A model generated the notes under the pieces. It did no database searches. It was not told where the DNA came from and saw only the letters and a list, made by a program, of their open reading frames with translations. A stretch of DNA of 64,000 nt from Patescibacteria group bacterium (GTDB lineage: Bacteria; Patescibacteriota; JABMPQ01): positions 68,533-132,532 of the forward strand of contig JBGTBM010000010.1 of assembly GCA_041749335.1 (NCBI GenBank), in the 5' to 3' direction. Shown here piece by piece: positions 4,420 through 24,234 of the stretch. Position numbers and translations under genes: made by a program. Numbering within the stretch: position 1 is the stretch's first letter; every line of letters starts with the position of its first letter.

Positions 4420-4456
4420 AACAAAAGACCCCACATTTCTGCGGGGCCTTTTTATC
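4420..4456 (-). terminator. Rho-independent terminator of csp copy 1.
   Basis: Minus-strand hairpin GGCCCCGCAGAAATGTGGGGTC followed by TTTTGTTTT. An almost identical element follows csp copy 2. Confidence 0.6.
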
Positions 4457-4470
4457 TGTAAATTAAGTAA

Positions 4471-4671
4471 TTACACTTTCTTTACATTGGTAGCGTTTGG
4501 TCCTTTTGGACTTTCGCCAATCTCGAATTCAACTGTGTCGCCTTCTTTCAAATCATTGAATTCTACACCTTGTAGTTCTGTTGAATGAAAGAATAGGTCT
4601 TTTTCTTCGCCTTCAATAGCGATGAATCCGAACCCACGATCAGTTAAACGAGCAATTTTTCCAGTTGCCAT
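4471..4671 (-). CDS. csp: Cold-shock protein, CspA family (copy 1).
   Basis: 66 aa, with the RNP1 motif GFGFI and cold-shock-domain (OB-fold) pattern LTDRGFGFIAIEG...DLFFH. Confidence 0.9.
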   Translation of the reverse strand: MATGKIARLTDRGFGFIAIEGEEKDLFFHSTELQGVEFNDLKEGDTVEFEIGESPKGPNATNVKKV

Positions 4672-4686
4672 GTTTATTTATGATTG

Positions 4687-4758
4687 TTTCTTAAGTTCAC
4701 TTATGGTTCCTGCAAGGGAAAGTTCGACTACGCTACTCCTGCAAACCTCTGTGACATT
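4687..4758 (-). promoter_or_regulatory. Conserved 5' leader (candidate cold-box or RNA-thermosensor element) of csp copy 1.
   Basis: A 72-nt stretch between the putative promoter and the ATG is about 90 % identical to the equivalent stretch upstream of csp copy 2 (10772-10842). That is higher than the identity of the coding sequences. Confidence 0.45.
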
Positions 4759-4762
4759 GTGT

Positions 4763-4792
4763 ATACTAGCATAGTAAGGTTTTTTTGTCAAC
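4763..4792 (-). promoter_or_regulatory. Putative sigma-70 promoter of csp copy 1.
   Basis: Minus-strand TTGACA - 18 nt - TAGTAT. Confidence 0.35.
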
Positions 4793-4802
4793 ACATTATA
4801 CT

Positions 4803-4859
4803 AAAACCAGACCCACTAAAGTAGTAAATCACAACAATTTGCTAATAAGTTGGGTCTAG
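4803..4859 (-). terminator. Insulating rho-independent terminator upstream of the csp copy-1 promoter. Member of a 3-copy terminator motif family.
   Basis: Minus-strand CTAGACCCAAC...TTGTTGTGATTTA...AGTGGGTCTGG followed by TTTT. The same architecture recurs at 10929-10986 and 15515-15567. Confidence 0.45.
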
Positions 4860-5029
4860 TCAATTACCTTAGCACGGTTAGATTAATATTACTAGCCTTT
4901 AGCAAACGAGGTGGTTTTTAGGATTAAGACTATTTAACGGCGGCAAAAAATAAAACCGGTCCGGCATCTTGACACCGATACTTCAATATAATAAGTTTAC
5001 ATGAAAGTGCATGACGTAGGAGGTTTGCA

Positions 5030-5245
5030 ATGTCGGGTAAATATCATTTTGAATGCCTCAACCCATCCTGTAAGTGGGGTACCGAAATAGAAGCTGACAA
5101 CGAAAACGATGCGATTGACTTTGCTTTTCGCAAGCATGATGAGCGCTGGATAAATATGGCCAAAAACAATCCCGGCAACTTTCAATTCTGTCCCGGCCGG
5201 CATTTTATCATCACATCCCCCGAAGGTAAAATCTCGCGCTTTTAG
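5030..5245 (+). CDS. Small Cys/His-containing protein (hypothetical).
   Basis: 71-aa ORF with a strong SD (TAGGAGG) 7 nt upstream, and a possible TTGACA/TATAAT promoter at about 4950-4975. The antisense ORF 4997-5287 overlaps it and was rejected. Confidence 0.5.
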   Translation: MSGKYHFECLNPSCKWGTEIEADNENDAIDFAFRKHDERWINMAKNNPGNFQFCPGRHFIITSPEGKISRF

Positions 5246-5402
5246 TTCTTTTGTCATATTAATGATCAATCTCGGCGATAACATCAATGGGATTTTTTTG
5301 ACTGCGAAATTTAATTGTCAACAAATACTAAACTTTAACATTGCAAACATTTTTTATTTTTGCGGGTAAAATGCTATACTGATAGAAATTAACAAAATTA
5401 TT

Positions 5403-5771
5403 ATGAATAAAAGATTAAGAGATTCGCTGCTTTTGGGAGCTGTACTGGGAATATTCTGCATTATCGGCATCGGCCTAAGACTGGGATTTGAAGGCAATGC
5501 GCTTTTTCTTTTTTCCGCCTGGTATAATCGGGTTATTCTGGGACTAGTGATCGGTTTGGCAGCTCCTCTTGTTTTTATTAAAGGCAGTGCCAATCGTTTT
5601 ATTCGCGGCGGCGTGCTGGGGCTGCTGGTTTCTTTCGCCTGGTTTGCTTCCACCGACTTTATTGATCCGCTGGGATTTGCGGCCGGCATCGTCTATGGCG
5701 TAATTATTGACGCGCTTATAACCAACGAAGCGAAAACAAAAATTGCCAAAAATGACGAAAAAGCTAACTAA
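5403..5771 (+). CDS. Integral membrane protein (hypothetical).
   Basis: 122 aa with about 4 TM helices. Its last codons overlap the start of the downstream hydrolase gene, which implies an operon. Confidence 0.55.
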   Translation: MNKRLRDSLLLGAVLGIFCIIGIGLRLGFEGNALFLFSAWYNRVILGLVIGLAAPLVFIKGSANRFIRGGVLGLLVSFAWFASTDFIDPLGFAAGIVYGVIIDALITNEAKTKIAKNDEKAN

Positions 5772-6735
5772 AGCATTAAAAATTATCGGGATCGTTATTC
5801 TCTCTTTTTTTATTTTGCTTTCGGTAGTTCCCTATCTTATCCCCCTTCCGCAAGATCTTCCCTGCAAGTCTAAAGAGGATCTAATGTCTCCAGACGGTCA
5901 TTTTACCGAGATTATGGGAAAACAAATGTATTACGAGGATTATGGCGATCAAAACGCGGAAAGTACAATTATTTTAGTACATGGTTTTGGCGCCAGTACT
6001 TTTTCCTTTCGCCACAACATTGCCGCCCTGACTTCAATGGATCTACGCGTAATCGCGGTGGATCTCTTGGGATATGGATTATCGGATAAAGATTATTTCT
6101 CGGATTATTCCCACCCCGCGCATGCCATAAGGCTTAAGGCGTTAATGGATAAGCTAAATATCGAAAAAGCGTATTTTATGGGACACAGTATGGGCGCGAG
6201 CGTAATCACGCATTTTGCCTCAAAATATCCCAATACCGCTGAAGCCCTTATTTTGGCCGCACCGGCGGTGGATACCAAGAGCTTGGAACCCAATCTGGAC
6301 GCGGCACGAATCGGCTCCAAACTGCTATTTTACCCGCCTTTCCGGCGCATTGCTCAATTGGCTTTGCGGGGCTACTTTTTCCCCGATAATGTCGATAAAA
6401 TATTAGCGAGCGCTTATTATAATACCGCTTTGATTACCGCTGATATTAATGCCGGCTATGCCGACCGGGTTATTACCGGAGATTGGGATTTGGCTCTTTT
6501 GGGCTCTACCCGCGATTATGCGAAAAATACCTTAGATTTTAATATTAATGATCTGAATAAAGAGGTTTTAATCATTGCCGGCGCAGATGACACTTGGATC
6601 CCGCTTTCGCAGGTAGAATATTTACATGAACAAATTGTTGGTTCAAGACTGCAGGTAATTCCCCGCTCCGGACATTTAGTGATGGAGGAAAGCCCGCATG
6701 AATTTAATCAGATCATCCAAGAATTTTTACCGTAG
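5743..6735 (+). CDS. Alpha/beta-fold hydrolase (esterase/lipase-like).
   Basis: HGFGAS (oxyanion hole) and GHSMGAS (GXSXG nucleophile elbow), plus an N-terminal TM anchor. Confidence 0.8.
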   Translation: MPKMTKKLTKALKIIGIVILSFFILLSVVPYLIPLPQDLPCKSKEDLMSPDGHFTEIMGKQMYYEDYGDQNAESTIILVHGFGASTFSFRHNIAALTSMDLRVIAVDLLGYGLSDKDYFSDYSHPAHAIRLKALMDKLNIEKAYFMGHSMGASVITHFASKYPNTAEALILAAPAVDTKSLEPNLDAARIGSKLLFYPPFRRIAQLALRGYFFPDNVDKILASAYYNTALITADINAGYADRVITGDWDLALLGSTRDYAKNTLDFNINDLNKEVLIIAGADDTWIPLSQVEYLHEQIVGSRLQVIPRSGHLVMEESPHEFNQIIQEFLP

Positions 6736-6783
6736 TTTTTTTCAAAATCCACATAATTATTATCTAAACATTGATATATAAAA

Positions 6784-6806
6784 AAGAAGCGCCCTAAAAC
6801 GCTTCT
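6784..6806. terminator. Bidirectional hairpin between the convergent hydrolase gene and the membrane-protein gene.
   Basis: AGAAGCG-ccctaaaa-CGCTTCT with A/T runs on both sides. Confidence 0.4.
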
Positions 6807-6856
6807 TTATTAATAATTATTTATTCTTCGTAATTCGTCTACTCTCTTATAACCGC

Positions 6857-7606
6857 TTATTCTTCCGGCGCTATTTCCACCTCTGATGGAATCTCGCCTT
6901 TAAATGACACCTTGCCGTCTTTAATACTGGCGTCCTCTATATTTAAGCCCGCAAAATTTTCTATCTGGCTATTGCCAAAAGATATTATTTCCGGCAAAGC
7001 TCGATCTAAAATACTTGATGGTATCGGAAATCGGCCGATCTCTAATTTTTCCGGAATTATTTCCTTAATTTCATTATCAGCCGCGCGCCCTGATATTTTA
7101 AAATAGAATGGCATGGAATCTTCCCGGGAAAGCCTTAAATAATCTAGCGCTTTTTGAATATCTTCTTCACTGTATTTATTGCCGGTTGCCTGGATGAATC
7201 CAATGATTTTATCGACTTGCACCAAGCCGGAGCATTCGCCGGTGCCATCTTCATTGATTTTAATCTGCATGTTTTGCGCTGGATAATATCCCCAGTTATT
7301 GGCATAGTTATTTGTCAGAGCGGTAAATTCCGCCGATGATATTTCAAATTCCGCTTTCTCGGAGCCTGCGGTCTTTAAGCTTTTTTCCGGCGCGGTGGAT
7401 TTCTTTAAAACTTTTACTTCGGCTTTGGTTTTCTTGGTTGCGCTTTTAAGATCCTCTTCGGTATAAGTAATCCCCAAGTCCCTCGGCTTATCCGTTCCCA
7501 TCAATTTTGCGATGGAGGGAATAAATCCAAAATATCCAAGCAGCAGCACTACCCCCAAAATCAACACGATAATGACAGTCCCGATAATAAGTAGCACCTT
7601 TTTCAT
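6857..7606 (-). CDS. N-terminally anchored extracytoplasmic protein (hypothetical).
   Basis: 249 aa, with the TM helix LLIIGTVIIVLILGVVLLLGYFGFI near the N-terminus. Confidence 0.6.
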   Translation of the reverse strand: MKKVLLIIGTVIIVLILGVVLLLGYFGFIPSIAKLMGTDKPRDLGITYTEEDLKSATKKTKAEVKVLKKSTAPEKSLKTAGSEKAEFEISSAEFTALTNNYANNWGYYPAQNMQIKINEDGTGECSGLVQVDKIIGFIQATGNKYSEEDIQKALDYLRLSREDSMPFYFKISGRAADNEIKEIIPEKLEIGRFPIPSSILDRALPEIISFGNSQIENFAGLNIEDASIKDGKVSFKGEIPSEVEIAPEE

Positions 7607-7651
7607 ATTTATTTTAGTTAATTAATATATATTTTATTATATTATATTTTT

Positions 7652-7684
7652 ATTAAAAGAAAAAGAGCGTGGCGACCACGCTCT
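7652..7684 (-). terminator. Rho-independent terminator of typA.
   Basis: Minus-strand hairpin AGAGCGTGG-tcg-CCACGCTCT followed by TTTTCTTTT. Confidence 0.5.
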
Positions 7685-7721
7685 TCATAATTCATTATTC
7701 ATTTCTTCATCCTTCAAATCC

Positions 7722-9521
7722 CTAATTTTTCTTAACTTTCCGCTCCGCCTTAATCCGATCATTCTTAGTTAAATATTTTTTTCGCAGTCTAATATTTTTG
7801 GGAGTAATTTCCAGATATTCATCATCGCTCATTACGCTCATCCCCCGCTCCAGCGTCATTTCCAAAGGCGGCGTCAGTCTAATCGCTTCATCCGATCCCG
7901 AAGCGCGCATATTAGTCAATTGCTTACCTTTAATCGGGTTAACCGCTAAATCGTTTCCCTTGGAAACATTGCCGATCACCATGCCTTCATACACTTCGGT
8001 AGTAGCGCCGATATACAAAGAGCCTCGCTCTTGCAAATTATAAAGAGAAAATCCCAAGGCCTTGCCGGTCTCCATCGATACCATAGAACCGACCTGTTTT
8101 TTATCTATATCGCCCACATAAGGTTTAAATCCCACTACGCGTGAATACATAATCCCTTCCCCGCGGGTATCTACCACAAAATCATTGCGATAGCCTAAAA
8201 GTCCGCGCGTGGGCATATCAAAAATCATTTTAGTATTGCCGTGTTCCGGCTGCATATTCACCATATTGCCTTTTCTTTTAGACATTTTTTCAATAATGCC
8301 GCCTGACATTTCATTTGGCACAATAATGGTTACTTCCTCAAAAGGTTCCAGTTTTTTGCCTGCTTCTTCCTTAATAATAACATTAGGCTGGGATATCTGC
8401 AGTTCGTAGCCTTCACGCCGCATATTTTCCAAAAGAATAGCGATGTGCATTTCACCTCGTCCCGATACTTGATAATGATCCGTGGAAGAAAAATCAATTT
8501 TTAATCCAACGTTTATTTCCAGCTCTTTTTCCAAACGTTCCCTAATTTGCCGATTGGTTACAAACTTGCCTTCTCGGCCAGCGAAAGGTGAATTATTGAC
8601 TAAGAAATTTAGAGTAATGGTCGGCTCATCAATGGAAATCGCCGGTAGTGCTTCCTGGCTTTCATCTTCACAAATTGTTTCGCCGATATAAATATCCGGC
8701 AGTCCCGCCACCATAATAATATCCCCGGCTCCGGCCTCCTGAACCTCTTTTTTGTTCAATCCTTCAAAAGTAAATAATTTGGTAATTTTTCCACTTCTAG
8801 TCTCGCCGGTTATGCTTTTTATTTTAACATTGGAGGTAGCGGCAATCTTCCCTTGATAAATGCGGCAAACCGCTAATCTTCCCAAGTAATTATCATACCC
8901 CAGATTAAAAGGCTGAATTAGCATTTTTTTTGCGCTGGCCTCTGCGCTGGATGCTACCGACACTTCCGCCACTATCATATCCAAAAGCGGAGTAAGATCT
9001 TTACCATCATCCTCCAACTTTAATTTCGCGATTCCCTGCTTGGCAATCGCATAAACCACCTTAAAATCCAGCTGTTCATCATTGGCTCCCAAATCCAAAA
9101 ATAATTCATATACTTTTTCTACCGCCTCTGCTGGAGCGGCCGCCGGCTTATCGATCTTATTAATCACTACAATCGGCTTCAACCCCAATTCCAGCGATTT
9201 CCTTAAGACAAACTTGGTTTGCGGCATGGGACCTTCTTGCGCGTCCACTACCAAAAGCACGCAATCAATTGAACGAAGCACGCGCTCCACCTCTGAACCA
9301 AAATCAGCGTGTCCCGGGGTATCCACAATATTAATCTTTCCGCCCTTATAAAGCACGGAGGTATTTTTAGAATAAATTGTAATGCCTCGCTCTTGTTCAA
9401 GATCATTGCTATCCATACTGACGGTATCGTCCGACATGCCTGTTTGCTGCATCAAAGCATCGGTCAATTTGGTTTTGCCGTGATCAACATGAGCGATAAT
9501 GGCGATATTTCTAATATCCAT
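7722..9521 (-). CDS. typA: Translational GTPase TypA/BipA.
   Basis: G1 AHVDHGKT and G3 DTPGH motifs, NKIDK, and the EF-G-like domain architecture over 599 aa. Confidence 0.9.
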
Positions 9522-9681
9522 AAGTTAGATTCTTTAAATTAAAAACCGCAGAATTTGCGGGTGTTTATATTAAACATTAACTTTATTTATACTACTATTC
9601 CCTTTTTTGGTCAAGATGATAATTTCCAATCGTTCTAAAACCCATCGGCGGCCTTCAAAATTTTAATTGTTATAAGATTAT

Positions 9682-9990
9682 CTATCTGGTTAATTCAGAA
9701 CAGACATAATCATTTACGACCGGAGTATTATTGTCGTACTGACAATTTAGTCCGCATTTATAATTTAAATCAGCTATCGCCAAATCTAGTTTTTTAGCCT
9801 CCTTTTCCGCCCACTCCCGGCAATCTTCCAAGGTTTTAAAATCTTTATTTAATTGTTTACCGGAATTTAAGTCAATCATTCCTTTCCAGGGACGGCTTTC
9901 AATGTAATTAAGAATGAGCGCGATGCCGCCGATAATTATCAATACGCCGATTACTCCCCCGATAAATTTCTGTAGCTTTTCACTAGCCAT
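9682..9990 (-). CDS. Small membrane-anchored Cys-containing protein (hypothetical).
   Basis: 102 aa with an N-terminal TM helix and 4 Cys in the C-terminal half. Confidence 0.5.
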   Translation of the reverse strand: MASEKLQKFIGGVIGVLIIIGGIALILNYIESRPWKGMIDLNSGKQLNKDFKTLEDCREWAEKEAKKLDLAIADLNYKCGLNCQYDNNTPVVNDYVCSELTR

Positions 9991-10010
9991 ATATTTTATG
10001 GATTGAATTT

Positions 10011-10454
10011 TTATTCTTCAATCAGTCCAGTGCAACGCCAATTGATCTCTGCCTCCCGAGTAACTTCATTCACAACGCAAGCGGGATTACATCCGGTTCT
10101 CTCAATATCTAAATCAAACCACCAAGTTTTAGTATAATCATTATAAGAACTATTGCCGGTTAGTTCGCCTTCAACTATACAAGCGCTATTTTGCGCAATT
10201 TCACGAGCTTCATCTTGACTCATAATAATCACTTCAGTAAAGGTCTTTCCATTGGCAGCACATTGCCGCGGATAGCTTTCCATCACGGGATTTCCGGCCT
10301 TTGCACACTCCTCAAAATTTGTAATTTCCTGATAAATTAAATTCGTATCGTTATTGTCAGATGTGTCCAGTTTATCCTTAAGATAAAAACCTAATACAAT
10401 AAGACCAGCCAAAAGTATTATCGCAAGACCAACAATTAAAATTCCCTTTTTCAT
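10011..10454 (-). CDS. Secreted or membrane-anchored Cys-rich protein (hypothetical).
   Basis: 147 aa with an N-terminal hydrophobic segment and 6 Cys. Confidence 0.55.
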   Translation of the reverse strand: MKKGILIVGLAIILLAGLIVLGFYLKDKLDTSDNNDTNLIYQEITNFEECAKAGNPVMESYPRQCAANGKTFTEVIIMSQDEAREIAQNSACIVEGELTGNSSYNDYTKTWWFDLDIERTGCNPACVVNEVTREAEINWRCTGLIEE

Positions 10455-10507
10455 ATTTTTTATTATTTAATATATTTTATTATAACATTTTAAATTTTAT
10501 ACACCAA

Positions 10508-10545
10508 ACAAAAAACCCCACATCGCTGCGGGGCCTTTTTATATG
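10508..10545 (-). terminator. Rho-independent terminator of csp copy 2.
   Basis: GGCCCCGCAGCGATGTGGGGTT followed by a T-run, nearly identical to 4420-4456. Confidence 0.6.
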
Positions 10546-10557
10546 TAAGTTAAGTAA

Positions 10558-10758
10558 TTACACTCTCTTTACATTGGTAGCGTTTGGTCCTTTTGGACTA
10601 TCGCCGATTTCGAATTCAACTGTATCACCTTCATTCAATTCTTCAAAAGTTACACCTTGTAATTCATTTGAATGAAAGAAAAGATCCTTTTCCTTGCCTT
10701 CAATGGCAATGAATCCGAATCCTCGATCAGTTAATCGAGAAATTTTTCCTTTTTCCAT
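10558..10758 (-). CDS. csp: Cold-shock protein, CspA family (copy 2).
   Basis: Starting from the internal Met (MEKGKISRLTDRGFGFIAIEG...), the protein is about 85 % identical to copy 1. The ORF track's upstream extension (to 10800) reads through the conserved leader and is unlikely to be translated. Confidence 0.85.
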   Translation of the reverse strand: MEKGKISRLTDRGFGFIAIEGKEKDLFFHSNELQGVTFEELNEGDTVEFEIGDSPKGPNATNVKRV

Positions 10759-10771
10759 GATTGTATAATAT

Positions 10772-10842
10772 TTTCTTAAGTTCACTTTTGGTACATGCAA
10801 GGAAAAGTTCGACTACGCTACTCCTGCAAACCTTTGTGACAT
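10772..10842 (-). promoter_or_regulatory. Conserved 5' leader of csp copy 2, paralogous to 4687-4758.
   Basis: See the copy-1 leader. A putative promoter TTGACA - 17 nt - TATTCT lies at 10847-10875(-). Confidence 0.45.
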
Positions 10843-10928
10843 TACAAGAATAGAATATTTAGATTTAAATGTCAATAACTTCCGCTTAATTTCATATACT
10901 AAAGTCGATTCAGATTATTTTACCTTTT

Positions 10929-10986
10929 AAAAAAACCAGACCCACTAAGTAGCAAATCACAACAATTCACTAGTAAGTTGAGTCTA
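10929..10986 (-). terminator. Insulating terminator upstream of the csp copy-2 promoter.
   Basis: CTAGACTCAAC...TTGTTGTGATTTG...AGTGGGTCTGG followed by TTTTTTT on the minus strand. Confidence 0.45.
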
Positions 10987-11101
10987 GTTTTTAAAGCTTA
11001 ACACAGTTTAATAAAAATAGATAGTTTATTATAATTTGCCCAAATTAAGTAATTTAAAGGCTTGGATTACTTTTTTATCAGCATAGTGTTAATATATTTT
11101 T

Positions 11102-12337
11102 ATGCGAAAACCATTAGACATTATTGTTATCGGCGGCGGGCCGGCCGGAATGATGGCTGCCGGCACTGCGGCTTCGAGTGGAGCTTCGGTTTTATTATTG
11201 GAAAAAAATGAAAAATTGGGTAAAAAATTGCTTTTAACCGGCAAGGAGCGCTGTAATATTACTAATGCTGAAATTAATAGCCATACCCTCAAAAAGATAT
11301 ATGGAAAAAATGGCGGCTTTCTTCATTCCGCTTTTAATTCCTTTTCCAACCAGGATATTATCGAATTTTTTGAAGACCAAGGAGTAAAAACCAAAGTGGA
11401 GCGCGGCAATCGCGTCTTTCCTCAAAGCGACCGTGCGCTCGACGTTTTAAGCGCGTTAAAAAATTATTTAACGAAAAATAACGTTAAAATAAAATATCAA
11501 GCTGAAGTAAAAAGTTTTATTAGAAAAGAAGGGCTGATCACTAAAGTTGTTCTTAGTAATGGCGAAGAATGTAAAGCTGATAAATTTATTATTGCGACCG
11601 GCGGTAAATCTTATCCCGAAACCGGCTCGACCGGCGATGCATTTTCTTGGCTTACTGGTATGGGACATCAAGTGATTAAACCCGCCCCCGCCTTGGTTCC
11701 GATTATAATGTCTAATGAATTTATCAAAGATCTCGAAGGTTTGAGCCTGCGCAACGTTAAAATAACTCTTTTTGATAATAATACCAAGATCGATGCGCGT
11801 TTTGGCGAAGCGCTTTTTACCGCCCATGGCATGAGCGGCCCGGTTATTTTAGATCTTAGCAAATTAGTTACCGGACTGATCAAGCCGACTCTCAATATTG
11901 ATCTAAAACCCGCTCTGAATTATCAGCAGCTCGATCTTCGCATCCAACGAGACTTTGCTAAATTTAATAATAAGATATTCCGTAATTCTTTACATCAATT
12001 GCTTCCTCGAAAGCTTATTGCCGTAATTATTAAATTGAGTGGCATCGATCCGGAAAAATATGTTAATGCAATCACAAAATCGGAGCGAAAGAAACTATTA
12101 AATTTACTTAAAGAGTTCAAATTAAGCATCAAGGGCGTTGATGGTTATCGCAAAGCTATTATTACTGCCGGCGGAGTTAGTTTGAAAGAAGTTGATCCAA
12201 AAACAATGCGTTCAAAATTAATTGATAATCTTTATTTTGCCGGAGAAGTGCTTGATCTAGACGGTCCCACCGGCGGATTTAACCTGCAAATTTGCTGGAG
12301 CTCCGGTTATTGCGCCGGCCTATCTTCTGCCAATTAA
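11102..12337 (+). CDS. HI0933-family NAD(FAD)-utilising flavoprotein (BaiN/aminoacetone-oxidase-like oxidoreductase).
   Basis: N-terminal Rossmann fold IIVIGGGPAGMMAAG, a length of 411 aa, and a characteristic HI0933-like C-terminus. Confidence 0.8.
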   Translation: MRKPLDIIVIGGGPAGMMAAGTAASSGASVLLLEKNEKLGKKLLLTGKERCNITNAEINSHTLKKIYGKNGGFLHSAFNSFSNQDIIEFFEDQGVKTKVERGNRVFPQSDRALDVLSALKNYLTKNNVKIKYQAEVKSFIRKEGLITKVVLSNGEECKADKFIIATGGKSYPETGSTGDAFSWLTGMGHQVIKPAPALVPIIMSNEFIKDLEGLSLRNVKITLFDNNTKIDARFGEALFTAHGMSGPVILDLSKLVTGLIKPTLNIDLKPALNYQQLDLRIQRDFAKFNNKIFRNSLHQLLPRKLIAVIIKLSGIDPEKYVNAITKSERKKLLNLLKEFKLSIKGVDGYRKAIITAGGVSLKEVDPKTMRSKLIDNLYFAGEVLDLDGPTGGFNLQICWSSGYCAGLSSAN

Positions 12338-15382: not shown

Positions 15383-15386
15383 TTAT

Positions 15387-15457
15387 TCGGGGATCGTCTA
15401 ATGGTAGGACACCTGGTTTTGGTCCAGGCAATCGGGGTTCGAGTCCCTGTCCCCGAG
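15387..15457 (+). tRNA. tRNA-Gln (anticodon UUG). CCA is not encoded.
   Basis: Manual cloverleaf: acceptor UCGGGGA/UCCCCGA, D stem GUCU/GGAC, anticodon stem CCUGG/CCAGG with loop UUUUGGU (anticodon UUG), T stem CGGGG/CCCUG with loop UUCGAGU, and discriminator G. Confidence 0.85.
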
Positions 15458-15514
15458 TTTTTTATTAAACTTGATATTTAAAACAAATTTGCTATACTTA
15501 TTTGACTAGACCTG

Positions 15515-15567
15515 TCTAATCGATAAATCGTTGTTGATTTATCGATCCAGCGGGTCTGGTTTTTTTA
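15515..15567 (+). terminator. Rho-independent terminator after tRNA-Gln, the third copy of the shared terminator motif.
   Basis: CTAGACC...ATCGATAAATCGTTGTTGATTTATCGAT...GGGTCTGG followed by TTTTTTT. Confidence 0.6.
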
Positions 15568-15593
15568 AAAAAATAACTGCGATAATCGCAGTT

Positions 15594-15875
15594 TTATGAT
15601 ACTTTTTTCCACAACAACACAATTTTATCCGAATGCGTAGAAATTTTTATTTTGGATAAAGAACCGGCCTTGATTACAGCTCCTTTTTTTAAAAGACGAG
15701 CCGAACTCTTACTTAAGATATTTATTTCGATATTTTTATCGGAATAATTATCTAAATGGATTAAGTGAGATCCATCTCTATTGATATAAATATCAACATC
15801 AAAAAGGTTTTCAGCATTAAAGCCAAGCATTTGACCAAAACTGATTTCAATTCTATTCCATACCTTTATTTCCAT
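15594..15875 (-). CDS. Hypothetical small protein.
   Basis: 93-aa ORF with no recognisable motif. Confidence 0.4.
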   Translation of the reverse strand: MEIKVWNRIEISFGQMLGFNAENLFDVDIYINRDGSHLIHLDNYSDKNIEINILSKSSARLLKKGAVIKAGSLSKIKISTHSDKIVLLWKKVS

Positions 15876-22672: not shown

Positions 22673-23827
22673 TTATTTCCTTTTAGCAAAATAAGCGCGC
22701 AACGACATAAATATCACTCCTATTCCAAAAACAGTCACTATTATTTTAATTATAAATCCTGCAATTGGAATAACGCATAATATCCCGATTATTGCGGTTC
22801 CGATTACTACCGACCACAATAAACTCACTTCTTTCTTTTTAGATATTTTAGCTAATAAGCTTTTCCCCACCCATAAGCCAACTATTACCTTAGCTAAATA
22901 GATCGAAATGCCATATATTGATATCAAAATCATAGCAAGCGGAATCCCAATTATAGTGATTAATATTAACAAGGCCAGTACTGGAACAATAATACAAATT
23001 ATTATTCCCCACAGAATACTGTTTCCCGGATCTCCGGCCAACCGATCAGTAATTTTTCTTATTTCTTTTGGAAATATTAATATTAGTATAATCCCCGATA
23101 ACATTAAGCTAATAATCTTTATCAAAAACCACATAATTGAAGTAGTAAGGCTAACAGCCCAAAAACCATCTTTTTTCTGATAATATTCCCTAGGTTCGGT
23201 TTTGGTCCAATCCACTAAGCCGTTAATATCGGCGCTTGTATTTATTTCGGCTTCCTCTGGAGAAGAGTATGATATTCCTCCTCCAATTTTTACATTTGGT
23301 CCGATAATCAACTTATCAAATTCACCTTTTAGATCTCCATCAATATTATTGGTAATCTTTAATTGGCCTGCTTTACCCACCACGTCTCCAGCTACTTTTC
23401 CATCCAAATATACCATTCCTCCATATACCCTTAAGTCTCTGCCAATTTCCACGTTATCTGAAACATAGACATTTCCTCCGACAATAAACGCGTTATCTTT
23501 AATTTTTCCCTCAATATTTACTTGCCCGCCCGCGGCATAAATATCATCACCGATATTTCCCCTAACGATAATTTGGCTTCCTACAGATGTTACATCTCCA
23601 TTTACTGATCCATTAATTTCAACTATGCTTCCCATTGCCTTTATGTCGCCGTTTAATTGTCCGTTTATGCGAACATTAGCGCCAACTACCAATAAATCAT
23701 CATTAACTACTACGCCCTTATCGATTTCAATAATCTCTCCCATTTGGACCTCAAACGCGTAGGCTGAAATTGGAAAAATCAAAAAGCCCAGGACAACGAG
23801 CAAGAAAGTTTTAGTTTTTTTCATCAT
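22673..23827 (-). CDS. Secreted bactofilin-like beta-helical repeat protein with a C-terminal polytopic membrane domain (hypothetical).
   Basis: A signal peptide, about 8 tandem (V/I)xGxVxGD(V/I) repeats typical of bactofilin/DUF583 beta-helices, then about 4 TM helices at the C-terminus. Confidence 0.5.
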   Translation of the reverse strand: MMKKTKTFLLVVLGFLIFPISAYAFEVQMGEIIEIDKGVVVNDDLLVVGANVRINGQLNGDIKAMGSIVEINGSVNGDVTSVGSQIIVRGNIGDDIYAAGGQVNIEGKIKDNAFIVGGNVYVSDNVEIGRDLRVYGGMVYLDGKVAGDVVGKAGQLKITNNIDGDLKGEFDKLIIGPNVKIGGGISYSSPEEAEINTSADINGLVDWTKTEPREYYQKKDGFWAVSLTTSIMWFLIKIISLMLSGIILILIFPKEIRKITDRLAGDPGNSILWGIIICIIVPVLALLILITIIGIPLAMILISIYGISIYLAKVIVGLWVGKSLLAKISKKKEVSLLWSVVIGTAIIGILCVIPIAGFIIKIIVTVFGIGVIFMSLRAYFAKRK

Positions 23828-24234
23828 TTTTTTATTTTATTTTTTATTATTGAAGATTTATATCTAAGGGGGTAATAAGATCCAATTTTTATTATTTTTA
23901 TTTTTTCTTCGCTATTTTTTATAAATTGTTTTAACTCAAAAATAAAATATTTTTGATCATAACCCAGAGCTATTATATCAGGTTTTTCCACTTTAATACA
24001 TTTAAAAATATCCACTAAATCTCCCAGTATTATTTTATCGGCTATATGTGTTTTTTTTATCTGATTAATCCTGTGTTTATAATTATATAATGGACTTTTC
24101 CCTTTTAGCCTGGTGACATTTTCATCCCTAGCAACGACCGCTACAAGCTTATTACCTAATTTTTTTGCCTCTTTTAAAAAATATATATGTCCCCGGTGTA
24201 GAATGTCAAATGTGCCAAAAACCATTACTTTCAT
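23824..24234 (-). CDS. Cytidylyltransferase-fold nucleotidyltransferase, most similar to archaeal-type FAD synthetase RibL (FMN adenylyltransferase).
   Basis: FGTFDILHRGH (HxGH), VARDENV, and PDIIALGYDQ. The start overlaps the downstream gene and the stop abuts lysS. Confidence 0.55.
   Translation of the reverse strand: MKVMVFGTFDILHRGHIYFLKEAKKLGNKLVAVVARDENVTRLKGKSPLYNYKHRINQIKKTHIADKIILGDLVDIFKCIKVEKPDIIALGYDQKYFIFELKQFIKNSEEKIKIIKIGSYYPLRYKSSIIKNKIKK

Follow-up and report, generated by a model that had tools for sequence, protein, structure and literature searches.

A conserved, predicted 5′-terminal hairpin in the leaders of cold-shock protein genes across Patescibacteria

Introduction

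Why should the untranslated leaders of two cold-shock protein (csp) genes be more alike than the genes themselves? The question is raised by a stretch of 64,000 nucleotides from a Patescibacteria group bacterium (assembly GCA_041749335.1, contig JBGTBM010000010.1, positions 68,533 to 132,532), hereafter the window, in which two csp genes occur. The Candidate Phyla Radiation (CPR) holds a large, uncultured bacterial diversity with reduced genomes, in which, to our knowledge, very few cis-regulatory RNAs are known. The original prediction, made from the letters of the window, was that selection acts on an RNA element in the csp leaders, a structured cis-regulatory RNA being plausible by analogy with the cold-box thermosensor of enterobacterial cspA. 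The cold box of Escherichia coli cspA and its bearing on mRNA stability were reportedly described by Xia et al. in 2002. This 5′-proximal stem-loop influences the stability of the mRNA (PMC9411577). In Staphylococcus aureus, RNase III targets the hairpin of the cspA 5′ UTR, and CspA acts as its own repressor by binding the U-rich right arm of this hairpin and melting it (Caballero et al. 2018, PMC5815144). For Bs-CspB, the preferred ligands are GTCTTTG/T and T-rich strands (PMC1904285; PMC1636342).

Results

Two csp genes in homologous, mosaic cassettes

Both csp genes encode a 66-residue protein with a Pfam cold-shock domain (CSD; E = 9e-20 for csp1 and 4e-19 for csp2), and the two proteins are identical at 56 of 66 positions. 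Each gene lies on the minus strand in a cassette of ∼460–500 bp, in which an upstream hairpin, a near-consensus sigma-70 promoter, a leader, the coding sequence and an intrinsic terminator follow one another in the same order (Table 1); the alignment of the cassettes and the Pfam matches bear out the shared architecture originally proposed. The two cassettes form direct repeats separated by 6 kb, whereas L081, a relative, carries a single csp gene, at the position of copy 2. Both terminators have the features of Rho-independent ones (13-bp stems with 5–6 G-C pairs, followed by a T run), and a conserved 3′-UTR block preceding that of csp1 (4453–4470) was also found in L081 and L084. The best explanation of this layout is that each csp gene forms a monocistronic unit with its own near-consensus sigma-70 promoter.

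Table 1. Positions of the csp cassettes and hairpin units within the window
Feature	Position	Strand	Remarks
csp1 coding sequence, 66 aa, cold-shock domain	4471..4671	-	Pfam CSD
csp2 coding sequence, 66 aa, cold-shock domain	10558..10758	-	Pfam CSD
csp1 promoter, TTGACA, 17-nt spacer, (TGc)TAGTAT	4763..4791	-	geometry recurs across the family
csp2 promoter, TTGACA, 17-nt spacer, TATTCT	10847..10875	-	
csp1 intrinsic terminator, GGCCCCGC...GUGGGGUC + U run	4423..4452	-	
csp2 intrinsic terminator	10510..10539	-	
csp1 5′ leader, ∼86 nt	4672..4757	-	predicted start ∼4757 ± 2
csp1 leader hairpin	4697..4754	-	single-sequence MFE and family covariation
csp1 apical loop, CGUAGUCGAA	4723..4732	-	family-invariant UCG at 4727-4725
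csp2 5′ leader	10759..10842	-	hairpin 10839-10782, loop 10817-10808, UCG 10812-10810
Upstream hairpin unit, copy 1	4803..4874	-	extended -10-like TGCTAAGGT at 4874-4866
Upstream hairpin unit, copy 2	10929..11003	-	TGTTAAGCT at 11003-10995; hairpin + U7 at 10988-10929
Hairpin unit, copy 3, unlinked to csp	15490..15566	+	nhmmer E = 1.8e-5

When the two cassettes were aligned, conserved blocks alternated with unconserved ones. Identity was 88.1% in the upstream hairpin with its U tail (4803–4862), 69% from the −35 to the −10 box, 91.7% (66/72) in a 72-nt leader block (4686–4757), 67% in the leader tail (4672–4685), 84.3% (167/198) in the coding sequence, 90.2% from the stop codon to the terminator and ∼60% in the outer flanks; a 45-bp insertion also separates the upstream hairpin of copy 2 from its −35 box. 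Values of 88–92% in the leader, hairpin and 3′-UTR blocks contrast with 45–69% in the promoter spacer and flanks. Third codon positions account for 21 of the 31 differences between the coding sequences, and synonymous csp sites are less conserved than the non-coding blocks of the cassettes. The earlier estimate of ∼90% identity for the leader against ∼80% for the coding sequence was essentially right. As had also been noted, neither gene has a Shine–Dalgarno sequence, but this is not specific to csp since it holds genome-wide: an SD-like match was found for only 5 of the 56 window ORFs, making the absence a property of the genome rather than of csp.

A predicted hairpin in both leaders

The −10 box of csp1 (TAGTAT) ends at 4763 and identity to copy 2 begins abruptly at 4757, where transcription is predicted to start; the ATG is at 4671. 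The length of 72 nt first given for the leader applies to the conserved block, which lies inside a 5′ UTR of ∼86 nt. The hairpin predicted for csp1 comprises P1 (UCAC/GUGA, 4754–4751 with 4700–4697), P2 (GGUU/AACC), P3 (UGCA/UGCA) and an apical helix (GGAG-U-AG/CU-UUCC). Its apical loop was found in both window copies and fits the loop RRUCGR of the family described below; the pyrimidine-rich 3′ arm CUUUCCCUUGCA follows it. Four of the six differences between the two leader blocks fall at unpaired positions, one turns a G-C pair into G·U and one breaks a pair. Neither leader hairpin exceeds shuffled sequence in stability (z = −0.1 and −0.5).

The predicted probability of the start region being unpaired was 0.82 at 37°C and 0.69 at 10°C for csp1, and 0.95 and 0.76, respectively, for csp2. 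Sequestration of the start region was rejected for the class to which the window copies belong, the duplex z being +0.56 (W1) and +0.64 (W2). Two further candidates were discarded. A leaderless uORF of nine codons in the W1 and W2 leaders (AUGUCACAG...UAG) has no conserved counterpart in L081 and L084, the closest relatives, and pairing of the loop UCGRR with UUCGG of the GFGF codons showed no covariation: the same loop occurs with both UUU-GG and UUC-GG codons, and the sole UCAA loop has UUCGG.

Distribution of the leader element

The window derives from a Moranbacteria-like member of the CPR. A search of other genomes, as the original prediction had proposed, found the leader architecture directly upstream of csp in 76 of 80 CPR loci and in both window copies (covariance model R2), that is, conserved well beyond the window. 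It consists of an irregular hairpin of ∼60 nt starting at the predicted 5′ end, with a UCG apical loop (U in 76/76, C in 76/76 and G in 74/76 sequences of alignment A7) and a U-rich 3′ arm (family columns 72–81). It invariably sits just before csp, in a single orientation; within the ∼440 kb of CPR DNA searched it was seen only beside csp, and the two csp leaders were the only matches to R2 and R3 in the 64-kb window. Across 75 kb from seven loci outside the R2 seed, of which three hardly differ in the leader region, the only matches were one per locus, each directly preceding csp. R2 scored 44.6–47.6 bits on L081, L083 and L084, relatives outside the seeds. The window leaders scored 44.5 bits (csp1, 4690–4758) and 45.1 bits (csp2, 10775–10843) with R2, and 66.8 bits (4693–4757) and 67.9 bits (10778–10842) with R3, partly by construction since both copies sat in the seed alignments of these models. 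When a model built from class A, the commonest sequence class, alone (R1) was used with filters off, the window leaders went undetected and the best score, 10.8 bits, fell on the upstream hairpin; the mixed-class R2 and the class-specific R3 were needed to find them.

Family promoters are near-consensus. A −10-like hexamer was found in 66 of 74 leaders, ending 7–8 nt before the first P1 nucleotide in 49; a purine stands just before P1 in 72 of 76, and throughout the family no more than 0–3 nt separate the hairpin from the predicted 5′ end. Large insertions inside the apical part are tolerated (L001, L085). Another class includes ∼15–20 leaders whose 5′ arm, CUGUAAGAGAAAC, shows complementarity to the pyrimidine tract immediately 5′ of the AUG as well, and the duplex between arm and start region reached z < −2 in 15 of 76 leaders. 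For several of these (L055, L045 and L006) the predicted full-leader MFE fold is the conserved 5′ hairpin at 10°C but the long-range pairing at 37°C. In a Kaiserbacteria-type class, the loop GGAUC is predicted to be base-paired in a pseudoknot. The leader matched no family in Rfam 15, and a search of the literature for a csp leader motif in CPR returned nothing relevant; most likely, the element is a previously uncatalogued regulatory RNA for csp production.

Covariation in the leader helices

Pairs were counted in alignments fitted to the covariance models and hence biased towards the model structure, a bias mitigated by controls with slid partners: in A7, which covers all classes, 80.8% of cells were paired, against 34–45% with slid partners. 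Double changes occurred in 16 of 16 pairs of A7; shuffling gave 59 ± 9 double-change cells where 133 were counted, and the observed value was reached in none of 500 shuffles. In A4 (class A only), 81% of cells were paired and 19 of 23 pairs were compensatory. For the window's own class (A10) the values were 72.6% against 32–52% with slid partners, with 32 double-change cells compared to 19 ± 3.6 in shuffles (0/500). The nested helices P1–P3 and the apical helix are thus supported by covariation, and the frequent G·U pairs in the family alignments place the structure at the RNA level, on the sense strand. When the window's class by itself was fitted to the consensus structure of the whole family, the count was weak (61% paired) because the helices are offset, which was resolved with R3 and A10; RNAalifold returned no structure from untrimmed upstream regions, whose flanks were misaligned. 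The compensatory changes and the conservation across Patescibacteria support the proposed selection on a structured cis-acting RNA, and more strongly than the window by itself could; a leader missing from related genomes, which was to have refuted the original prediction, is not what the search showed.

The upstream hairpin

The hairpin upstream of each csp promoter had been taken for an insulating terminator. Several observations suggest that no such insulation is needed: copy 2 and the csp of L081 each have a divergent gene upstream, insulation would be redundant in L084, where an ordinary terminator already precedes the hairpin, and the hairpin carries a conserved TGnTAnnnT box of its own and recurs as a third copy away from csp. 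By match to the consensus, this box lies 5–6 nt before ACUAG in 6 of 6 unit copies, with a hairpin and U4–7 after it, a layout that was compared with that of an independent small-RNA gene with a putative promoter and terminator of its own. In copy 1 the hairpin is ACUAGACCC...GGGUCUGG followed by UUUU (4860–4803); in copy 3, which lies 45 nt downstream of tRNA-Gln and was not found at the orthologous tRNA-Gln locus of L081, the box is TGCTATACT (15490–15498) and the hairpin with U7 spans 15505–15566. The upstream hairpins are more stable than shuffled sequences (z = −3.1 and −5.2). No such unit was found upstream of csp in more distant relatives by nhmmer and pattern searches, several of these relatives having unrelated terminator hairpins there, and a metagenome scan for the hairpin gave one match only. 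Judged by its sequence, the upstream element is a separate, genus-restricted unit made up of a promoter-like box and a hairpin. Pairing of its loop UUGUGAU with the leader 5′ end AUCACAR (7 bp, partly wobble) was set aside as expected by chance at this length; it showed no compensatory variation, and the loop of the third copy is mismatched.

Discussion

What, then, might the leader hairpin do? The proposal we favour, to which we give an even chance, is that it is a Csp-responsive 5′-terminal hairpin, like that of S. aureus cspA, controlling csp post-transcriptionally. The mRNA would begin 0–3 nt before an irregular hairpin of ∼58 nt (P1–P5), capped by the UCG loop and followed by the U/pyrimidine-rich 3′ arm, and this hairpin would act as a csp-specific control element whose 5′-terminal stem shields the 5′ end of the mRNA. 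Csp, a single-strand binder that prefers U-rich sequence, would bind the loop and the 3′ arm (GUCGRRYUUU...) and melt the hairpin, producing negative feedback; until Csp had built up, cold would favour expression by stabilising the hairpin. For the window copies, whose start region is predicted to lie outside the fold, this feedback would work via mRNA decay or processing; the 5′ arm, once freed, could in certain other lineages pair with the start region as well.

The likeness to S. aureus cspA is one of layout. In both cases a long imperfect hairpin forms the 5′ part of a csp leader of ∼90–110 nt, whose left arm is purine-rich (AAGAA-type) and pairs with a right arm rich in U, and the start region of a monocistronic csp gene lies outside it; in the window, such hairpins were found at 4754–4697 and 10839–10782. 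There is, however, no evident sequence relationship, an invariant UCG loop and a start right at the predicted 5′ end set the CPR element apart, and it is for S. aureus that RNase III cleavage and Csp binding are known. Autoregulatory leaders of ribosomal-protein and other RNA-binding-protein genes likewise have a conserved structured site only before the gene of their own RNA-binding protein, but Csp is a low-specificity single-strand binder. We know of no mimicry of another Csp target. Counting against Csp binding, the conserved GUCGRR...UUU only partly resembles a GUCUUU-type Csp site, and the invariant UC may be structural rather than a protein contact, because the Kaiserbacteria-type loop GGAUC is paired in the predicted pseudoknot. 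That shuffled sequence is as stable as the leader hairpins or more so likewise speaks against the proposal.

A more far-reaching version, which we hold to be doubtful, is that the hairpin is a dedicated Csp-sensing riboregulator predating the radiation of Patescibacteria. The UCG loop and U-rich arm would be its operator, elaborated in particular lineages into a two-state translational switch or a pseudoknot, and in the window's genus it would be coupled to the adjacent hairpin RNA of ∼58 nt, which would have its own promoter, duplicate to new sites and perhaps act with Csp or titrate it.

A protein-independent thermosensor, in which temperature alone switches the leader between two folds and thereby sets translation and/or stability, also appears unlikely. 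The E. coli cspA 5′ UTR behaves in this way (PMC9411577), and both the complementarity between arm and start tract in ∼15–20 leaders of another class and the predicted refolding of L055, L045 and L006 between 37 and 10°C would fit. Like the CPR element, the Rfam cspA thermoregulator (RF01766) is a cis-acting 5′ UTR of a major cold-shock gene, and mutually exclusive folds are predicted in some CPR classes. The window leader differs in its ∼86 nt and in that occlusion of the start region is not predicted; indeed the whole class of the window copies is without complementarity to the start region, and a start-region-occluding thermometer is unsupported there because the start regions are predicted to be open at both temperatures. 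RF01766 scored 29.9 bits over 4421–4761, including the coding sequence, against a gathering threshold of 78, and gave no match at E ≤ 10 when 4672–4870 alone was searched; the score is therefore attributed to the coding sequence. The cold-box sequence of E. coli cspA, TGACGTACAGA, was absent from both window leaders at up to three substitutions. A pure melting device would, moreover, leave the invariant apical loop unexplained. The window leaders are not members of the enterobacterial cspA family, and a thermosensor of that type is unsupported for them.

Improbable, too, is a passive stabiliser that would prolong the life of an abundant mRNA with no regulatory input. The leaders of E. coli ompA and B. 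subtilis ermC/aprE are 5′-terminal stem-loops of this kind, and the CPR element shares with them a hairpin with almost no single-stranded 5′ overhang on an abundant mRNA; its onset at the predicted 5′ end throughout the family and the near-consensus promoters, as expected of a highly expressed gene, agree with such a role. However, those leaders are not known to need a conserved loop or to be gene-family-specific motifs. A stem alone would suffice, leaving unexplained the invariant UCG loop; nor would a stabiliser account for purine-rich and U-rich arms conserved over very divergent lineages, exclusive association with csp, or a lineage-specific pseudoknot and alternative pairing.

That the inverted repeat serves a transcription factor as an operator in DNA is very improbable: at +1 to +60 a repressor could block elongation, but pairing is kept via G·U wobbles that are A-C mismatches on the other strand, the arms are bulged and free to vary in sequence yet complementary, and large apical insertions are tolerated. 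The notion that the leader similarity is a functionless by-product of recent duplication or gene conversion, to which the direct repeats and the lone csp of L081 at the copy-2 position (making inter-cassette rearrangement plausible) would lend themselves, can hardly be right, being already contradicted by the 21 changes at third positions, set against the 88–92% identity kept in the leader, hairpin and 3′-UTR blocks, and by leader covariation conserved in dozens of distant genomes.

The retention of the structured csp leader across many CPR lineages implies that in these bacteria the RNA chaperone Csp has long been subject to post-transcriptional control, and that this control is important. 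After E. coli and S. aureus, it would provide a third, structurally unrelated case of control through a csp leader. The three classes (a plain hairpin, one with an added start-pairing arm and one with an added pseudoknot) may form a natural series leading from a protein-binding hairpin to a switch. The element is compact, at ∼60 nt, and its function could be tested in vitro without culture; the R2 and R3 models provide a new RNA family for the annotation of CPR genomes.

Two csp cassettes of the same construction

The window has a low GC content (27-40 %), and the nearest named relatives of the csp1 protein are proteins from Moranbacteria or Patescibacteria MAGs; judged by sequence, the source belongs to the Patescibacteria (CPR) and stands near 'Moranbacteria'. 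The original prediction of two csp cassettes bearing the same series of elements was confirmed around both minus-strand ORFs, each with a long hairpin and U run, a TTGACA-17-TAnnnT promoter, a leader, the ORF and a G+C-rich terminator. Pairwise alignment of the cassettes (copies 1 and 2) gave identities of 88.1 % in the upstream hairpin, 69 % in the promoter, 91.7 % in a 72-nt block of the leader, 67 % in the final 14 nt 5′ of the ATG, 84.3 % in the CDS (21 of the 31 differences falling at third codon positions), 90.2 % from the stop codon to the terminator and ∼60 % in the flanks. This region-wise mosaic confirms the duplicated cassettes: evolution is slower in three non-coding blocks than at the synonymous sites, and the leader is, as had been claimed, more conserved than the coding sequence. 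The predicted leader length of 72 nt holds for the conserved block, but the full 5′ UTR is about 86 nt. In copy 2, a 45-bp insertion separates the upstream hairpin from the promoter.

Between stop codon and terminator lies a block, UAAUUACUUAAYUUACAKAUAAAAA (4453-4473 and 10540-10560, minus strand), that is nearly invariant in both window copies and in the related loci L081 and L084; the terminator loop varies. In L081 there is only one csp (92 % identity to csp1), and it adjoins a divergent HI0933-like gene, which is the position of csp2 in the window. When window positions 4471-12337 were compared with L081 positions 8430-11903, the 6-kb segment between the window cassettes, with TypA/BipA and an alpha/beta hydrolase among its genes, was found to be missing from this locus in L081. 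This arrangement fits a duplication/insertion, or a deletion by recombination between direct-repeat cassettes.

Features of the csp cassettes and of the upstream hairpin unit in the window
Feature	Position	Strand	Remarks
csp1 ORF	4471-4671	-	66 codons; Pfam CSD, E about 1e-19
csp2 ORF	10558-10758	-	66 codons; Pfam CSD, E about 1e-19
csp1 -35 box	4791-4786	-	
csp1 -10 box	4768-4763	-	TG upstream
csp1 predicted transcription start	about 4757	-	
csp1 leader P1	4754-4751 with 4700-4697	-	UCAC/GUGA
csp1 leader P2		-	GGUU/AACC
csp1 leader P3		-	UGCA/UGCA
csp1 leader apical helix		-	GGAG-U-AG/CU-UUCC
csp1 leader apical loop	4732-4723	-	invariant UCG at 4727-4725
csp1 leader 3′ part		-	about 25 A/U-rich nucleotides, then ATG at 4671
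csp2 leader hairpin	10839-10782	-	same anatomy as csp1; loop 10817-10808
Upstream hairpin, copy 1	4860-4803	-	far more stable than shuffles
Upstream hairpin, copy 2	10988-10929	-	far more stable than shuffles
Hairpin, copy 3	15505-15566	+	45 nt after tRNA-Gln (15386-15458)
Copy 3 whole unit	15490-15566	+	promoter-like box, hairpin and U7

A structured leader RNA shared by CPR genomes

With one genome taken per GTDB species, a scan guided by protein sequence yielded 80 csp loci, almost all of them under the label Patescibacteria, with Moran-, Kaiser-, Nomura-, Harrison-, Lloyd-, Ryan-, Terry-, Colwell-, Taga- and Magasanikbacteria and Paceibacterota among the named lineages. In the 120 nt 5′ of each csp start codon a core ...RRUCGR... 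recurred between covarying arms, and single-sequence folds gave an alike nested, irregular hairpin in most leaders. Three sequence classes share this one architecture: that of the window (loop CGUAGUCGAA), the common class (CUGUAAGAGAAAC-GAAGUCGG-GUUUU) and a Kaiserbacteria-type class (CUGAUCCAGAGAAGUAAGGAUCGAGCUUC). A covariance model of the common class alone (R1) did not detect the window leaders; a model built from all three classes (R2) matched 76 of the 80 loci and both window copies (44.5 and 45.1 bits), once per locus and always directly 5′ of csp. The sole other R2 match in the window, at 23775-23846 (+), was rejected as a family member, being at noise level (18.6 bits, E = 0.43) and lacking the UCG loop. 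Eight extra loci from exact-protein look-ups, which stood outside the building of R2 and may share genomes with its seed, gave a single match directly upstream of csp in seven cases, amounting to about four distinct leader sequences (the leader region is near-identical among L091-L093, which encode the same protein, and between L081 and L083), and nothing else in 75 kb. In the eighth, L085, the insertion of an approximately 140-nt hairpin interrupts the leader.

Additional hairpins of this sort, with 13-bp stems and lengths up to about 140 nt, were located at L085 9790-9950 and L001 about 1425-1490, and others were seen in L062, L066, L069, L072 and L028; they sit inside or just 3′ of the leader hairpin and leave the outer helices intact. 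The leader tolerates insertions immediately 3′ of its loop.

Within the family, the loop U and C are invariant (76/76) and the G nearly so (74/76), the two bases before and the one after this UCG are purines, and a U-rich 3′ arm follows just past the loop. The promoters are near consensus, with TTGACA and, in 51 of 66, a TG-extended -10 box. Since this box ends 7-8 nt ahead of the first P1 nucleotide in 49/66 cases and a purine lies directly 5′ of P1 in 72/76, the hairpin is predicted to be located at the extreme 5′ end of the csp mRNA.

Covariation was assessed in model-fitted alignments, whose pairing counts are thereby biased toward the model structure: 80.8 % of cells were paired in A7 (all classes, 77 sequences), 81 % in A4 (common class, 38 sequences) and 72.6 % in A10 (the window's class, 22 sequences realigned with the class-specific model R3), versus 34-45 %, 35-50 % and 32-52 %, respectively, with slid partners. 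Compensatory change occurred in 16/16, 19/23 and 9/18 pairs. In each alignment, none of 500 shuffles reached the observed value. Double-change cells numbered 133 in A7, against 59 ± 9 in column shuffles, and 32 against 19 ± 3.6 in A10, where pair 15-63 is C-G in seven sequences and U-A in seven, and pair 13-65 is A-U in six and G-C in six. Applying the family consensus columns to the window's class alone gave weaker counts, owing to the offset of the helices in this class. Both the slid-partner controls and the frequency of G.U pairs speak for a real signal, one at the RNA level and on the sense strand. The central idea of the original prediction therefore stands: the leader is a selected, structured RNA, kept in CPR relatives with compensatory changes.

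The 72-nt blocks of the two window leaders (W1 and W2) differ at six positions, four of them unpaired, one turning G-C into G.U and one breaking a pair. A 9-codon ORF (AUG UCA CAR AGG UUU GCA GGA GUA GCG UAG; 4756-4727 and 10841-10812, minus strand) begins at about the second nucleotide of both; without conservation in the closest relatives, it was dismissed as a conserved feature.

Relation to known RNA families

Across the whole window, Rfam 15 gave no family at threshold save one tRNA, nor did it match the leader in 20 representative loci of all classes. Under permissive thresholds, the E. coli cspA thermoregulator model scored 29.9 bits over leader plus CDS (gathering score 78); this match stems from coding similarity, since it was lost when the leader was searched without the CDS. 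With no cold-box sequence found in the two window leaders either, at up to 3 substitutions, membership of the enterobacterial cspA family was rejected. The full-text literature in open access yielded no account of the CPR leader. The element amounts to a new family of RNA whose functional kind is already known.

A separate hairpin unit upstream of the promoter

The upstream hairpin had been taken for a terminator insulating the cassette. Hairpin and U run are present, but a simple insulating role is disfavoured: an extended -10-like box (TGnTAnnnT) lies 5-6 nt ahead of the hairpin in 6/6 copies, the gene upstream of the unit is divergent in copy 2 and L081, an ordinary terminator already precedes it in L084, and the orthologous tRNA-Gln site of L081 is missing the copy 3 unit (the difference is an indel of about 95 nt that shows no obvious target-site duplication). 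The copy 3 stem shows compensatory sequence differences, its ends ACUAGAC/GGGUCUGGUUUU and loop GUUGU being retained. This copy is upstream of a convergent 93-aa ORF, to which a separate bidirectional terminator belongs (about 15577-15593). In close relatives, whose Csp is 89-92 % identical, the hairpin occupies the corresponding site ahead of the csp promoter, and its stem has changed in a compensatory manner, for example from AGAC/GUCU to AGGC/GCCU. The terminators that stand at this site in more distant relatives are unrelated to it. The unit was not found elsewhere among the 80 csp loci, and once only in a JGI metagenome scan. We read it as a genus-restricted, duplicating promoter, hairpin and U tract, which may be a very small gene for an sRNA or else a terminator module complete in itself; it is separate from the pan-CPR leader.

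Translation initiation

Both csp copies lack a Shine-Dalgarno (SD) sequence, as predicted, although this is not a csp-specific feature: only 5 of 56 long window ORFs showed an SD-like duplex with the 16S 3′ tail in the 18 nt upstream. Start regions across the window are rich in A and U. Strong SDs do occur at a few genes (e.g. GGGAGGG 5′ of ORF 15594-15875(-)), and the anti-SD therefore presumably exists in this organism. Initiation is mostly SD-less, on A/U-rich start regions, and the csp genes follow suit.

How the leader may work

An analogy with the enterobacterial cspA thermosensor had been drawn. Its simplest reading, a thermometer that occludes the start region, is unsupported in the window copies, since the full-leader folds predict the start region to be unpaired at both 37 °C and 10 °C (probabilities of 0.82 and 0.69 in W1, and 0.95 and 0.76 in W2) and the 5′ arm has no complementarity to it.

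Other genomes offer variants. In 15-20 common-class leaders the SD-like 5′ arm (e.g. GUAAGAGGAG) has a second potential partner, the pyrimidine tract lying between about -4 and -16 relative to the AUG, with a complementarity of 9-13 bp, and lineage-specific changes preserve this pairing (UAGAGAA/UUCUCUA; GGGG opposite UUUU in L006). It was noted in L049, L041, L028, L006, L052, L061, L064, L022, L055 and L045, with arm CUGUAAGAGAAAC. Full-leader minimum-free-energy (MFE) structures often favour the long-range pairing at 37 °C; for L055, L045 and L006 the predicted MFE structure is this pairing at 37 °C and the conserved 5′ hairpin at 10 °C. In such a two-state arrangement, hairpin opening would free the arm for pairing with the start region. 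For leaders of the Kaiserbacteria-type class (L043, L047, L072, L077 and 20 other loci), the loop GGAUC is complementary to GAUCC just 3′ of P3, fully so in 23 of 24 sequences, the centre pair occurring as U-A, G-C, A-U and C-G. This is a probable pseudoknot, and the invariant UC can therefore be structural.

Universal to the family are a stem at the 5′ terminus, a single-stranded loop that does not vary, and the pairing of a purine-rich arm with a U-rich one. Among systems characterised by experiment, S. aureus cspA comes closest: RNase III cuts a long hairpin in its 5′ UTR, and CspA attaches to the U-rich right arm, opens the stem and represses its own production (PMC5815144). Csp proteins favour U/T-rich single strands, GTCTTTG/T in the case of Bs-CspB (PMC1904285, PMC1636342), a site that the conserved GUCGRR-YUUU of the CPR leaders resembles only partly. 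On this analogy we favour a Csp-responsive 5′ hairpin; beyond the presence of a conserved, structured 5′-terminal RNA in the csp mRNA, every step of the proposal is inferred: the hairpin, stabilised by cold, would shield the 5′ end of the message, and the build-up of Csp would open it, leaving the csp mRNA exposed to decay or altered processing.
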